DNA from: a phage
DNA: 64,000 bases
Reading direction: 5' to 3' (one strand)
Sequence record: PZ445436.1
This document shows, piece after piece, positions 21,634 through 31,215 of this stretch; position 1 is the stretch's first letter; each line of letters starts with the position of its first letter. The notes under the pieces are model-generated. The model saw only the letters and a list, made by a program, of their open reading frames with translations. It was not told where the DNA came from and ran no database searches. The position numbers were made by a program, and so were the translations under genes.

Positions 21634-24600
21634 ATGGCCGAGATTAAAAGAAAGTTCAGAGCAGAAGATGGTCTGGACGCAGGTGGTGATAAAATAATCA
21701 ACGTAGCTTTAGCTGATCGTGCCGTAGGAACTGACGGTGTTAACGTTGATTACTTAATTCAAGAAAACACAGTTCAACAATATGATCCAACTCGTGGATA
21801 TTTAAAAGATTTTGTAATCATTTATGATAACCGCTTTTGGGCTGCTATAAATGATATTCCAAAACCGGCAGGAGCTTTTAATAGCGGACGCTGGAGAGCA
21901 TTACGTACCGATGCTAACTGGATTACGGTTTCATCTGGTTCATATCAATTAAAATCTGGTGAAGCTATTTCGGTTAACACCGCAGCTGGTAATGATATTA
22001 CATTTACTTTACCATCTACCCCAATTGACGGTGATACTATCGTTCTCCAAGATATTGGAGGAAAACCTGGAGTTAACCAAGTTTTAATTGTAGCTCCGGT
22101 GCAAAGTATTGTAAACTTCAGAGGTCAACAGGTACGTTCAGTACTAATGACTCATCCAAAGTCACAGCTAGTTTTAATTTTTAGTAATCGTCTGTGGCAA
22201 ATGTATGTTGCTGATTATAGTAGAGAAGCTATAGTTGTAACACCAGCAAGTCTCTATCAGGCGCAATCTAATGATTTTATCGTACGTAGATTTACTTCTG
22301 CTGCACCAATTAATGTTAAACTTCCAAGATTTGCTAATCATGGCGATATTATTAATTTCGTTGATTTAGATAAACTGAATCCACTTTATCATACAATTGT
22401 TACTACATACGATGAAACGACTTCAGTACAAGAAGTTGGAACTCATTCCATTGAAGGCCGTACATCAATTGACGGTTTCTTGATGTTTGATGATAATGAG
22501 AAATTGTGGAGATTGTTTGACGGGGATAGTAAAGCACGTTTACGCATTATAACGACTAATTCTAATATTCGTCCAAACGAAGAAGTCATGGTATTTGGTG
22601 CGAATAACGGAACAACTCAAACAATTGAACTTCAGCTTCCAACTAATATTTCTGTTGGTGATACTGTTAAAATTTCCATGAATTACATGAGAAAAGGACA
22701 AACAGTTAAAATCAAAGCTGCCGGTGAAGATAAAATTGCTTCTTCAGTTCAATTGCTGCAATTCCCAAAACGTTCAGAATATCCACCTGAAACTAAATGG
22801 GTGACTGTTCAAGAATTAGTTTTTAACGGTGAAACTAATTATGTTCCAGTTTTGCAACTTGCTTACATAGAAGATTCTGATGGAAAATATTGGGTTGTGC
22901 AACAAAATGTTCCAACTGTAGAAAGAGTCGATTCTTTAAATGATTCTACTAGAGCAAGATTAGGCGTAATTGCTTTAGCTACACAAGCTCAAGCTAATGT
23001 CGATTTAGAAAATTCTCCACAAAAAGAATTAGCAATTACTCCAGAAACATTAGCTAACCGTACTGCTACTGAAACTCGCAGAGGTATTGCAAGAATAGCA
23101 ACTACTGCTCAAGTGAATCAGAACACCACATTCTCTTTTGCTGATGATATTATCATCACTCCTAAAAAGCTGAATGAAAGAACTGCTACAGAAACTCGCA
23201 GAGGTGTCGCAGAAATTGCTACGCAGCAAGAAACTAATGCAGGAACCGATGACACTACAATCATCACTCCTAAAAAGCTTCAAGCTCGTCAAGGTTCTGA
23301 ATCATTATCTGGTATTGTAACTTTTGTATCTACTGCAGGTGCTACTCCAGCTTCTAGCCGTGAATTAAATGGTACGAATGTTTATAATAAAAACACTAAT
23401 AATTTAGTTGTTTCGCCAAAAGCTTTGGATCAGTATAAAGCTACGCCTACTCAACAGGGTGCAGTAATTTTAGCCGTTGAAAGTGAAGTAATTGCTGGAC
23501 AAAGCCAAGAAGGATGGGCAAATGCTGTTGTAACGCCAGAAACGTTACACAAAAAGACATCAACTGATGCAAGAATTGGTTTAATTGAAATTGCTACGCA
23601 AAGTGAAGTTAATACAGGAACTGATTATACTCGTGCAGTCACTCCTAAAACTTTAAATGACCGTAGAGCAACTGAAAGTTTAAGTGGTATAGCTGAAATT
23701 GCTACGCAAGTTGAATTCGACGCAGGCGTCGACGATACTCGTATCTCTACACCATTAAAAATTAAAACCAGATTTAATAGTACTGATCGTACTTCTGTTG
23801 TTGCTCTATCTGGATTAGTTGAATCAGGAACTCTCTGGGACCATTATACCCTTAATATTCTTGAAGCAAATGAGACACAGCGTGGTACACTTCGTGTAGC
23901 TACACAGGTTGAAGCTGCTGCAGGAACATTAGATAATGTTTTAATAACTCCTAAAAAGCTTTTAGGTACTAAATCTACTGAAGCACAGGAAGGTGTTATT
24001 AAAGTTGCAACTCAAGCTGAAACCGTAGCTGGAACATCAGCAAATACTGCTGTATCTCCAAAAAATTTAAAATGGATTGTCCAGTCTGAACCAACATGGG
24101 CTGCTACTACGGCGATTCGTGGATTCGTTAAAACTTCATCCGGTTCTATTACATTTGTTGGTAATGATACAGTTGGTTCAACACAACCTTTAGAATCATA
24201 TGAGAAAAATAGCTATGCAGTATCACCATATGAATTAAACCGTGTACTTGCTAACTATTTGCCATTGAAAGCTAAAGCCGTAGATAGTAATTTATTAGAT
24301 GGCCTAGATTCATCTCAGTTCATTCGTAGGGACATTGCACAGACGGTTAATGGTTCACTAACCTTAACACAACAAACGAATCTGAGTGCCCCTCTCGTAT
24401 CATCTAGTACTGCTACGTTTGGTGGTTCAGTTTCGGCAAATAGTACATTAACTATTTCTAATACTGGAACGGCAACTCGTCTGATTTTTGAGAAAGGACC
24501 TCAAACTGGAACTAACCCAGCGCAGACGATGACTATTAGAGTTTGGGGAAATCAGTTTGGTGGTGGATCAGATACAACACGTTCTACTGTATTTGAAGTT

Positions 24601-27363: not shown

Positions 27364-30300
27364 ATGGCTACTTTAAAACAAATACAATTTAAAAGAAGCA
27401 AAACTGCAGGTCAACGTCCTGCTGCTTCAGTATTAGCCGAAGGTGAATTGGCTATAAACTTAAAAGATAGAACAATTTTTACTAAAGATGATTCAGGAAA
27501 TATCATCGATTTAAGCATTTCTGCTGGTGGTAATATCAGTGGTAATATTACTCAAACTGGAGATTATTTACAGAACGGTACATACAATCTCAATGGAAAT
27601 CAGTTTGTTTATGCAGGAAAATATATTGAATTTTTACCTAAAACAGCTGGTAATGGTGCGTGGGCAAATCAACACCTAAATAAAGCTCCTATCTTTACAG
27701 ATTTAAGTTCAACTACTTCTATTTCAGAATATCATCCACTCATTAAGCAACGCTATAAAGATGGAACTTTTTCAGCGGGTACATTGGTTGCTGAAGGCAG
27801 TTTTAAAATTCATTTTATGAATGAATCTGGTGATTCGAAATATTGGACGTTTCGCCGTGACGGTGGATTTACTGTTGACAATGGAGGTTTAGCAGTATCA
27901 GGTGGTAGTATAACCACAACCGGAAACATCGCCGCGATCGGAAATATTACTTCGCCCCAGATTAATACTAAAAATATTATTTTAGATACAAAGGCATTCG
28001 GACAGTATGATTCACAGTCATTAGTTCAATATGTTTATCCTGGAACAGGTGAAGAAAATGGTATAAACTATCTTCGTAAAGTTCGAGCTAAATCAGGCGG
28101 AACTATTTACCATGAAATCGCTTCAGCTCAAACTGGTAAGAATGATGAAATTTCTTGGTGGACCGGAAATACACTTACTACTAAATTAATGGGTCTTCGT
28201 AATGATGGCGCAATGGTATTACGTCGTTCACTTGCTATTGGCACAATTACCACTGATGAAAATACTAACAACTACGGTTCTCCTACTCCAATGGGAGAAA
28301 GATATATTGCTTTGGGCGATGCTGCAACCGGTTTAAAATACATTAAGCAGGGTGTTTATGATTTAGTAGGTAATTGGAATTCTGTTGCTTCTATTACTCC
28401 TGACAGTTTCCGTAGTACTCGTAAAGCGTTATTTGGTCGTTCAGAAGACCAAGGTGGAACATGGATTATGCCTGGAACGAACGCTGCCTTTTTATCAGTC
28501 CAAACACAGGCTGATGAAAACACTGCTGGAGACGGTCAAACCCATATTGGATATAACTCTGGCGGTAAAATGAACCACTATTTCCGTGGTAAAGGAAAAA
28601 CTAATATTAATACTCAAGAAGGCATGGAAGTTAACCCGGGTATTTTGAAATTGGTAACTGGCTCTAATAATGTAATGTTTTATGCTGATGGCGGTATTAC
28701 ATCTGTTAAGCAGCTTTCAATATATAACGGCATATATTTAGCAGCTAATAATTCTACTGCTGGGCTAACATTCGCTCCAACTACTACAATTGATGGCACT
28801 AAGCAAATTTTGTGGGAAGGCGGTACTCGTGCTGGTCAGAATAAAAGCTATGTAACTGTTAAAGCATGGGGTAATTCATTTAACGCATCTGGCGATCGTA
28901 ATCGTGAAACGGTTTTTGAAGTAGCTGATGGACAAGGATATTATTTTTATTCACAGCGTGTGGCTCCAAGTGGCTCTGAAACTACTGGGCCTGTTGTAAC
29001 CCAGTTCAATGGACAAGTTAATGCTAGAGGAAGTATTATTACTGACGGAAGTTTTAAAGTTAATGGATTAAGCACTTTAGTCGGTAATGTTACTATGTCT
29101 AATGGTTTGTTTGTCCAAGGTGGTTCTTCTATTACTGGACAGGTAAAAATTGGTGGAACGGCTGATGCATTAAGAATTTGGAATGCTGAATACGGTGCTA
29201 TTTTCCGCCGTTCAGAAGCGTCATTACATATTATCCCTACTCCTAAAGATGCCGGTGAAAGCGGTGGAATAAGTAATCTCCGCCCACTTAGTATTAGCCT
29301 TAATAATGGTATGGTGCAAATGCGTCATTCCGTTACATTAGGTGATGATGGTGCAGGCGGTAATATGGTGACGGTTGATAATGATTCTAAAGTTATGGTA
29401 ATGACGACTAATAGCCGTATTAGTCCTAACTTCCGTATGCAAATTGGACAGTCGTCTTATATTGATGTGGAATGTACTGATGCTGTGAGACCTACTGGAG
29501 CCGGTTCTTTTGCTTCACAGAATAACGAAAACGTTCGCGCTCCGTTCTATATGAATATTGATAGAACAGATACAAGCACTTATGTTCCTATTGTGAAACA
29601 AAGATACGTTCAAAATAATAGTTGCTATTCTATTGGTACTTTAATTAATGGTGGTAACTTTAGAGTTCATTATCATGAAGGCGGTGACGGCGTTTCTACT
29701 GGTGCTATTATAAAGGATCTTGGATGGGAATTTAATAAAAACGGTGATTTTTATTCTCCTGGTAAATTAGGCGCTGGAAATATTAGAATAGGTACTGATG
29801 GTAATATTACTGGCGGAACTGGTAACTTTGCTAACTTGAACACAACTATCGAATCATTAAAAACCGATATTGTTTCAAGTTATCCTATTGGAGCTCCTAT
29901 TCCATGGCCTACAGATACTCCTCCTAATGGTTACGCTATTATGGAAGGACAGACTTTTGATAAGTCTGCATACCCAAAATTGGCTATAGCTTACCCATCT
30001 GGAGTAATTCCTGATATGCGCGGGCAAACTATCAAAGGTAAACCAAGCGGTCGTGCTGTGTTAAGTGCAGAAGCTGATGGTGTTAAGGCTCATAACCATA
30101 GTGCTTCAGCATCTAATACTGATTTAGGTACTAAAACTACATCAAGCTTTGATTATGGCACTAAGACGACAAGTAGCTTTGACTATGGCACTAAGACTAG
30201 CAATACCACAGGTAACCACTCTCATACTGTAAGCGGTACTACGAGTTCTGCTGGTGCACACCAACATGCGCGCTCAGGTCCTCAGATACAAGCCGGCATA

Positions 30301-30636
30301 CCCAATAACATATTCTATGACGGATATAATAGTGTAGGTGCAAACGCCAACGCTAAATTCACTGGAACCGTGAACGGTGCTACTGCATGGTCGAATATAG
30401 CCAAAACTTCTTCAGACGGTGCTCATACTCATACTTGGTCTGGTACTACAAGCACTACAGGTAACCATGCTCACACAGTAGGTATTGGTGCTCATACCCA
30501 TACTGTAGGTATCGGTGCTCATACCCACACGGTAGCAATTGGCTCGCATGGTCATACTATCACTGTAAATAGTACAGGTAATACAGAAAACACGGTTAAA
30601 AACATTGCTTTTAACTATATCGTTCGTTTAGCATAA
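27364..30636 (+). CDS. 37: long tail fibre distal subunit gp37 (receptor-recognising tip)
   Basis: 1090 aa; C-terminal His-box repeats (GNHSHTV, GAHTHTV) as in T4-type gp37 tip. Confidence 0.95.
30127..30204 (+). repeat. tandem 30-nt repeat in gene 37 ([10 protein letters not shown] x2 plus partial)
   Basis: units 30127-30156 and 30157-30186 encode identical peptide with 7 synonymous differences. Confidence 0.7.
30481..30561 (+). repeat. His-box repeats in gene 37 tip region
   Basis: GIGAHTHTV x2 then AIGSHGHTI. Confidence 0.7.
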
Positions 30637-30663
30637 GGAGAGGGGCTTCGGCCCCTTCTAAAT
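30637..30663 (+). promoter_or_regulatory. gene 38 split ribosome-binding site
   Basis: GGAG 23 nt from ATG with AGGGGC-UUCG-GCCCCU hairpin in between. Confidence 0.7.
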
Positions 30664-31215
30664 ATGAAAATATATCATTATTATTTTGACACTAAAGAAT
30701 TTTACAAAGAAGAAAATTACAAACCGGTTAAAGGCCTCGGTCTTCCTGCTCATTCAACAATTAAAAAACCTTTAGAACCTAAAGAAGGATATGCAGTTGT
30801 ATTTGATGAACGTACTCAGGATTGGATTTATGAAGAAGACCATCGCGGAAAACGAGCATGGACTTTTAATAAAGAAGAAATTTTCATAAGTGACATTGGA
30901 AGCCCGGTTGGTATAACTTTTGATGAGCCCGGCGAATTTGATATATGGACTGATGACGGTTGGAAAGAAGACGAAACATATAAGCGAGTTTTAATTCGTA
31001 ATAGAAAAATTGAAGAATTATATAAAGAGTTCCAAGTTTTAAATAATATGATTGAAGCTTCTGTCGCCAATAAAAAGGAAAAATTTTATTATAAAAACCT
31101 TAAGCGGTTCTTTGCTCTTTTAGAAAAGCATGAGCATTTAGGCGGTGAATTCCCTTCATGGCCTGAAAAAGAACGGAAACCTTGGTATAAGCGTTTATTC
31201 AAGCATTACGTATAA
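30664..31215 (+). CDS. 38: gp38 tail fibre assembly chaperone (T4 type)
   Basis: 183 aa, matches T4 gp38 as recalled; split RBS hairpin between SD and ATG. Confidence 0.85.
   Translation: MKIYHYYFDTKEFYKEENYKPVKGLGLPAHSTIKKPLEPKEGYAVVFDERTQDWIYEEDHRGKRAWTFNKEEIFISDIGSPVGITFDEPGEFDIWTDDGWKEDETYKRVLIRNRKIEELYKEFQVLNNMIEASVANKKEKFYYKNLKRFFALLEKHEHLGGEFPSWPEKERKPWYKRLFKHYV

Follow-up and report, generated by a model that had tools for sequence, protein, structure and literature searches.

Among the closest described relatives of the locus considered here is the receptor-binding tip of gp37 in phage T4, the structure of which (PDB 2XGF) is reportedly the work of Bartual et al. in 2010. That tip presents a collar or knob, a stem of six strands that bears HxH boxes on each of its two arms, then a head domain and a C-terminal motif, all of which recur in the phage studied here, as does the gene order with a gp38 chaperone encoded downstream. 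A second relative, the gene 37/38 record of phage TuIb, is said to go back to the work of Montag, Hashemolhosseini and Henning in 1990, and a third kind of tip is found in lambda Stf and related enterobacterial prophage fibres. At the level of domain models, PF03335 of Pfam captures a 14-residue HxH unit that adjoins the repeat discussed below; the units with which we are concerned, the 10-residue GTK unit and the 9-residue His-box unit, both fall outside it. On the structural side, passages in the literature give the T4 needle seven HxH-coordinated iron atoms along its length (PMC6957217), and describe the gp37 chain as running from the knob to the tip and then turning back (PMC9603124). Further, according to passages in PMC6957217, PMC5221442 and PMC3157838, the host range of T4 widens in the laboratory when a small gp37 segment between His boxes is duplicated in tandem.

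The DNA analysed here, hereafter the window, is a stretch of 64,000 nucleotides from a phage (sequence record PZ445436.1). Between positions 21634 and 31892 it carries six plus-strand ORFs, with products of 1289, 371, 221, 1090, 183 and 218 aa, and the order of genes in this fibre region is that of T4, namely 34-35-36-37-38-t. To judge from its sequence matches, the 1090-aa product is gp37 of a Tequatrovirus with a TuIb-type tip. The features of the gene, its distal repeats and its downstream neighbour are the following:

27364..30636, plus strand: gene 37, the distal long-tail-fibre subunit of 1090 aa (ORF list, translation and nucleotide matches)
29890..30033, plus strand: the collar (knob) domain, base of the needle (Pfam PF07484 Collar, E 6.9e-12; the region aligns to 2XGF)
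30091..30099, plus strand: HNH, the first HxH box of the ascending arm, with SASASNTDL after it (aligned to the T4 HSH box in 2XGF)
30127-30156, plus strand: U1, GGTACTAAAACTACATCAAGCTTTGATTAT, a 10-residue unit and the counterpart of the single FDY unit of T4
30157-30186, plus strand: U2, GGCACTAAGACGACAAGTAGCTTTGACTAT, an extra 10-residue unit absent from T4, in its 'type A' nucleotide version
30187-30216, plus strand: U3, a degenerate terminal 10-residue unit that runs into the second HxH box
30217..30267, plus strand: the ascending 14-residue-spaced boxes HSH and HQH (of the Pfam 'Phage tail fibre repeat' type, PF03335; tip parsing)
30268..30423, plus strand: the head (tip) domain, the variable receptor-binding part, of TuIb type (delimited by the last ascending and the first descending HxH box)
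30424..30465, plus strand: the descending 14-residue step HTH...GN, ending at the HAH box (tip parsing)
30466..30573, plus strand: four 9-residue-spaced His-box units of the descending arm (repeat family D1; Tandem Repeats Finder period 27; 9-residue gap against 2XGF)
30664..31215, plus strand: gene 38, encoding a T4-type tail-fibre assembly chaperone for gp37 (identity to TuIb gp38; PHROG 105)

The earlier note on this DNA had named the gene gp37 and placed the repeat in its distal receptor-binding tip, and both assignments stand on the match of the last 290 aa to T4 gp37 785-1026 (PDB 2XGF; E 1e-94 by phmmer against PDB sequences, query 13-290 to 2xgf_A 2-242) together with identities of the TuIb type. 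To elaborate, over its last 873 nt the gene shows an identity of 99.8% with Shigella phage vb_GEC_SH_GT, of 94-97% with many Tequatrovirus genomes and of 94% with X55191, the gene 37/38/t record of TuIb. The knob is recovered by PF07484 at residues 43-90 of a 290-aa query starting at 29764, with 45.6 bits against a cut-off of 24. The 14-residue profile PF03335 has its best listed stretch at query residues 147-160, in the region of the HSH box, with no single stretch above threshold; this stretch falls downstream of U1 and U2, and the 10-residue unit itself gives no match to the profile. Neither Pfam nor NCBIfam was found to hold a model for the 10-residue GTK unit or the 9-residue His-box unit; likewise, no model for gp37 or gp38 was found in NCBIfam, and none for gp38 in Pfam. 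The 183-aa product downstream is identical to TuIb gp38 at 183/183 residues and has a match, with an E of 1e-44, in PHROG 105, 'tail fiber assembly', and the gene after it matches holin. The chaperone gene adjoining gene 37 is hence of the T4-type gp38 kind, as opposed to the gp38 adhesin of the T2/T6 type, and gene 38 of T4 occupies the same position.

Within the tip, U1 and U2 are translated in the gp37 frame into the same 10-residue peptide and differ at 7 of 30 bases, all seven differences being synonymous, so that the central observation of the earlier note is confirmed by both translation and base comparison. The codon pairs that differ are GGT/GGC, AAA/AAG, ACT/ACG, TCA/AGT (three bases) and GAT/GAC. 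The third, partial unit of that note is likewise present in the form of the degenerate U3, which retains only the first four residues of the U1/U2 peptide (GTKT) and shares with U2 its first 11 bases, GGCACTAAGAC. Around the starts of U2 and U3, at 30154 and 30184, lies a perfect 14-nt direct repeat, TATGGCACTAAGAC. Tandem Repeats Finder reports the array at 30130-30199 with a period of 30, 2.3 copies and a score of 98, and a second array at 30472-30535 with a period of 27, 2.4 copies and a score of 100. The latter comprises the His-box repeats, for which the same pattern had been claimed and is indeed seen: the units at 30481-30507 and 30508-30534 both read GIGAHTHTV and differ at 3 of 27 bases, all of them synonymously, and the next (30535-30561) reads AIGSHGHTI. 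Altogether, the gp37 of the window has eight HxH boxes, three before the head domain and five after it, and when the tip is aligned to T4 and relatives conservation is lowest in the head domain. Over the repeat, no competing ORF of at least 60 aa is present on either strand, and an overlapping or antisense gene was accordingly rejected as its cause; an RNA element was also rejected as an explanation.

When this tip is set against that of T4, the only gaps relative to 2XGF in the repeat regions are 10 residues at U2 and 9 residues at one VGIGAHTHT unit. The window thus exceeds T4 by a 10-residue GTK unit and a 9-residue His box, with four rather than three 9-spaced His boxes and eight rather than seven HxH boxes overall. 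The head domains are different, the spacing between the starts of the flanking boxes being 55 residues in the window and 37 in T4. At the nucleotide level, the T4 unit differs from U1 at 2 of 30 bases and from U2 at 6 of 30. Given that the T4 chain runs from knob to tip and back, the two repeats of the window would lie on opposite arms of one stem. The likeness to TuIb is closer still, extending from the nucleotide identity of the tip to the same nucleotide type of U2, identical His-box units and the fully identical gp38; the differences are three silent bases in U1 and a few head-domain substitutions, such as a Trp at 30388-30390 where TuIb and others have Gly. Lambda Stf and the related prophage fibres also have three GTK units, four 9-spaced boxes, one 14-residue step per arm and the conserved 16-residue C-terminus, but differ in the N-terminal fibre and in the chaperone (Tfa), in reading TTGSFDY in U2 where the window reads TTSSFDY, and in a codon usage that is that of the host. 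In summary, the repeat is real but ordinary: it belongs to the TuIb-type version of the gene, which was sequenced decades ago, and it is already known both as sequence, from TuIb and many deposited genomes, and as architecture, from 2XGF.

The main point, which the earlier note missed, is that the copy numbers of the GTK repeat and the His-box repeat co-vary, the two being, in our reading, halves of one structural module. We parsed the tips by the distance from the first to the second HxH box (12 + 10n residues) and by the run of exactly 9-spaced boxes that ends at the last box; the units were thus defined by spacing rather than by the letters FDY, and the apparent exceptions given by counts of FDY and HxH motifs vanished once spacing was used. 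The sample combined protein tips from two database searches, IMG/VR loci and an independent scan of GTDB species genomes, with T4-like alleles taken singly from the phage collection; an IMG/VR scan with a longer gp37 query added few.

In this sample, which is rich in E. coli prophages and in which phylogeny was handled via the count of head clusters only, 225 of 227 unique gp37/Stf-type tips have one 9-spaced His box more than they have 10-residue units. By class, five tips have one unit and two boxes, 92 have two and three, 113 have three and four, 14 have four and five and one has five and six, leaving two exceptions; the window, with three GTK-type units (two full, one degenerate) and four boxes, obeys the rule. 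In all 227 tips the two arms also match in their count of 14-residue steps (none per arm in 85, one in 141 and two in a single tip). The constituent sets agree with one another: of the 143 unique protein tips, 66 have an offset of 32 with three boxes, 71 an offset of 41/42 with four and four an offset of 52 with five, and two apparent misfits were resolved on inspection; the IMG/VR set has one exception among 79 loci; and the GTDB scan added the class of one unit with two boxes and further tips of four units with five boxes. Thus, copy number varies across relatives by alignment and count of the tips, where an invariant number would have told against the earlier note; for FDY units, T4 has one, the window two and other relatives none to four.

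The coupling is not a matter of phylogenetic inertia, for among 66 clusters of head domains at 60% identity there are six that contain both the form with two units and three boxes and the form with three units and four boxes. Hence, the sample may contain at least six instances of the coupled change, each independent of the receptor-binding head. A direct view of such a change is offered by PhiZZ23 and JLBYU31, which are about 99% identical over some 800 nt, a span that takes in gene 38 and all of the head domain, and which are set apart by a single 30-nt indel within the GTK repeat and a single 27-nt indel within the His-box repeat. Taken across the relatives, the aligned sequences suggest that nearly every gain or loss of a 10-residue unit goes with that of one histidine (iron-binding) box on the returning strand. 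As for the two exceptions, L002 (IMGVR_UViG_3300030021_000020), a 10.5-kb metagenome contig, has three units and three boxes: its absent 27-nt unit is flanked by identical sequence, and within about 50 nt after that place it passes from TuIb-like to O157-typing-phage-3-like sequence. Either the assembly is chimeric or the contig is a natural unequal recombinant; if it is a real uncoupled recombinant, the coupling may not be absolute. In the other (L208), from the symbiont Candidatus Erwinia dacicola, the first box has decayed to AGAHTVAIGS, and two paralogues in the same genome are regular. No statement of the coupled-module rule was found in the searchable literature, which is weak evidence of novelty in that most subscription papers lie outside its coverage.

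We consider it probable that the repeat supplies one arm's share of a length module spanning both arms of the needle stem, and advance the following account of how it would work. The repeat lies in the stem (the 'needle', domain D11) of the receptor-binding tip, along which the chain would run from the knob to the head domain and back again. A 10-residue unit on the outgoing arm would be paired with a 9-residue His box of the HxHTVGIGA type on the returning arm, and a 14-residue HxH unit with a 14-residue HxH unit of the opposite arm. The axial span would have to be equal for both arms, such that a unit could be gained or lost only along with its partner; this pairing of gains and losses would in turn cause the GTK repeat and the His-box repeat to occur together. 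By analogy with T4, the protein of the window would form an intertwined trimer with octahedral iron sites, in which each pair of units probably makes up one axial layer with one extra metal site and thereby lengthens the needle. The tip should then have eight HxH sites as against the seven of T4, and we estimate the length of a layer at ~2.5-3 nm if the arms are extended strands. The constancy of the peptide might reflect its packing against the His-box arm around the metal sites of the six-stranded stem, and U2 would be an old paralogue common to TuIb-type alleles, the silent sites of which have drifted to saturation.

This brings us to what the silent differences themselves say. Of the 90 possible single-base changes of U1, 20 (22%) are synonymous, and seven unconstrained changes would all be silent with a chance of only ~3e-5 (0.222^7); the seven of seven observed are thus beyond chance, and purifying selection on the peptide is supported, in keeping with the strong selection that the earlier note had proposed. 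If the unit peptide is encoded twice, independently and synonymously, under the codon usage of the six fibre-region genes, the two versions are expected to differ at 6.75 ± 2.1 bases, with P(>=7) = 0.54 for the 7 observed. The longest run common to U1 and U2 is 8 bases against 8.8 expected, and the number of shared codons is also at the centre of its distribution. The silent sites of U1 and U2 are hence saturated and not over-diverged. Across T4, Mosigvirus and Gaprivervirus alleles U1 is nearly invariant in its nucleotides, and U2 comes in four types:

Type A, that of the window: at least nine phages, including SH_GT, Some, KAW1E185, R5505, teqhad, TuIb, phage 212 and F2, with two different head domains
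Type B, TSSS, with 3-7 differences from U1: PhiZZ30, O157 typing phage 3, DCP80, JLBYU31, P896, JM10 and the L002 contig
Type C, GSK: HX01 and Aplg8
Type D, identical to U1: VR25

The occurrence of type A in at least nine phages points to U2 being an inherited, old paralogue. Within other phages the two units differ at 0 of 30 bases in VR25 and at 3 of 30 in each of JLBYU31, P896 and O157 typing phage 3, and over 14 distinct T4-like alleles the differences range from 0 to 8 with a mean near 5.

Recombination in T4 is very active, and the earlier note had read the silent differences between U1 and U2 as selected in their own right, a diverged repeat being less prone to deletion by recombination. 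Indels do occur at these very places, as in the clean 30-nt and 27-nt indels that separate PhiZZ23 and JLBYU31 and in the L002 contig, which lacks one 27-nt unit between identical flanks, and the codons of U2 are non-modal at 7 of 10 positions against ~4 expected, a weak hint only. However, the divergence is just that of neutral saturation by both base differences and run length, and none of the 14 T4-like alleles goes beyond it; the starts of U2 and U3 still share the perfect 14-nt direct repeat; and elsewhere a perfect 30-nt duplication is kept in VR25, as are two His-box units only 2 of 27 bases apart in JLBYU31. We therefore do not uphold the divergence as a guard against recombinational deletion: as an explanation it is improbable, it would be a weak second-order effect at most, and nothing in the data requires it. 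Somewhat more credible, if still unlikely, is that U2 was imported by recombination from a diverged gp37/Stf allele, with the silent differences marking two parental lineages. The near-invariance of U1 beside four discrete types of U2 would fit such an import, as would the mosaic patches that adjoin the indels. Likewise, the step from TCA to AGT is impossible by silent single changes, and a single step separates the AGT serine codon of U2 from the glycine codon, GGC, at the same position in the U2 of lambda Stf, which provides a route between the two serine codons that avoids silent single steps. Recombination at conserved motifs of this locus has also been described (Tetart et al. 1996 and 1998, as cited in a passage of PMC3157838). 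Against it, no donor emerges: among 27 distinct prophage and IMG/VR alleles none comes closer than 9 of 30 bases to the U2 of the window, which leaves a prophage origin of U2 unsupported, and 30 bases carry little phylogenetic signal.

The duplications of Tetart et al. 1996 were reportedly fresh ones selected on a new host, and the repeat of the window could in principle be a recent host-range duplication of this laboratory kind. Duplication in the gp37 tip is documented as a way in which host range changes (Tetart et al. 1996, as cited in passages of PMC6957217, PMC5221442 and PMC3157838), and the laboratory duplications resemble the window's in being tandem, in the gp37 tip and at or near conserved His-box motifs. 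Yet the copies in the window are neither identical nor nearly so, and their saturated silent sites, together with the sharing of U2 by TuIb and eight other phages, imply that the duplication is not recent. Further, its units are in the stem as opposed to the head domain, and each comes with a matching unit on the other arm, as in 225 of 227 tips. We accordingly reject this explanation as very nearly without credit, and retain the two-armed length module, with an old and inherited U2, as the preferred reading.

By itself the repeat changes nothing, as it is part of a known TuIb-type version of a well-studied adhesin. More generally, where the copies of a short repeat encode an identical peptide with silent differences, ordinary purifying selection acting on an old duplicate accounts for the pattern, with no need to invoke protection from recombination. 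The coupling rule has some practical bearing: where gp37/Stf tips are swapped or shortened to alter host range, the numbers of GTK units and 9-spaced His boxes should be kept matched; a mismatch between them would flag a chimera or a decayed gene, offering a quick check of assemblies and annotations; and for a TuIb-type phage the rule predicts eight rather than seven iron sites per fibre. At a broader level, the gp37/Stf needle could be viewed as a modular ruler in which the length of the stem is set in discrete layers, of which one to five were seen, and each layer may be encoded by two short repeats ~350 nt apart, of 30 nt for the outgoing arm and 27 nt for the returning one, which would have to change in concert. 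That this rule is both right and previously undescribed we hold as a tentative proposal, with the chances somewhat against it. If it is so, the modular ruler would provide a simple design rule for engineering fibre length and, in evolutionary terms, an example of compensatory indel evolution within one gene.

Among the T4-like tips, only that of the metagenome contig IMGVR_UViG_3300030021_000020 (L002 and L081) combines 3 ten-residue GTK units with no more than 3 nine-spaced His boxes. In it, the parental type changes directly 3' of the missing 27-nt unit, and the head domain resembles none of the others fetched; the contig is a genuine recombinant in which the two repeats are uncoupled, or else its assembly is chimeric. 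In one tip from Candidatus Erwinia dacicola (L208, contig_246), the first descending His box has degenerated and retains one His (AGAHTVAIGS); the same genome has two further, paralogous tips that are intact. Such a degenerate box would fit a prophage decaying in the genome of a symbiont. In the tips with 4 units and 5 boxes (P0182, P0197, P0204, L201, L212 and others), the units alternate as TDL…FDY…TDL…FDY; going by this pattern, what they have in excess seems to be one double unit of 20 residues and not two units added singly. In Escherichia phage vB_EcoM_VR25 (L001), the two [10 protein letters not shown] units show 0/30 nucleotide differences, so that they probably stem from a duplication of recent date or from gene conversion; between the two HxHTVGIGA units of this phage there are 4 differences in 27 nucleotides.

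Identical lambda stf tips were also recovered by the genome contig scan (L180-L192 and L233) in assemblies of Chromatium, Leeuwenhoekiella, Pseudomonas, Paenibacillus, Shewanella, Kitasatospora, Bradyrhizobium and others. Most of those contigs whose title states a coverage give about 1-2.5x, and three contigs of the set are 48.4-48.5 kb each; these tips look like contamination with phage lambda DNA.

Within the window, the gp37 head domain carries a Trp codon (TGG, 30388-30390), in the context …[11 protein letters not shown]…. All close relatives fetched, including SH_GT, TuIb, R5505, teqhad, Some and O157 typing phage 3, have Gly (GGG) or VG at this position. The codon amounts to one G-to-T change in the receptor-binding part of the protein and might be a host-range mutation.

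Between the stop of gene 37 and the start of gene 38, which encodes the assembly chaperone, there are two elements:

Within 30637-30663: Shine-Dalgarno sequence AAGGAG.
30642-30655: GGGGC-UUCG-GCCCC tetraloop hairpin, 3' of the Shine-Dalgarno sequence.

The 45-nt stretch with the hairpin folds at -15.6 kcal/mol (z = -2.6). The intergenic element is identical to that of the window in PhiZZ23, JLBYU31 and PhiZZ30, and a stem variant of the hairpin is found in both O157 typing phage 3 and the metagenome contig L002.

The head domains of PhiZZ23 (L173) and JLBYU31 (L174) are almost the same, with 2 amino acid differences, but the needles of these two phages are of unequal length. Their isolation hosts belong to different genera, Citrobacter rodentium for PhiZZ23 and E. 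coli K-12 for JLBYU31. The two phages constitute a natural pair that bears on the relationship of stem length to host range.
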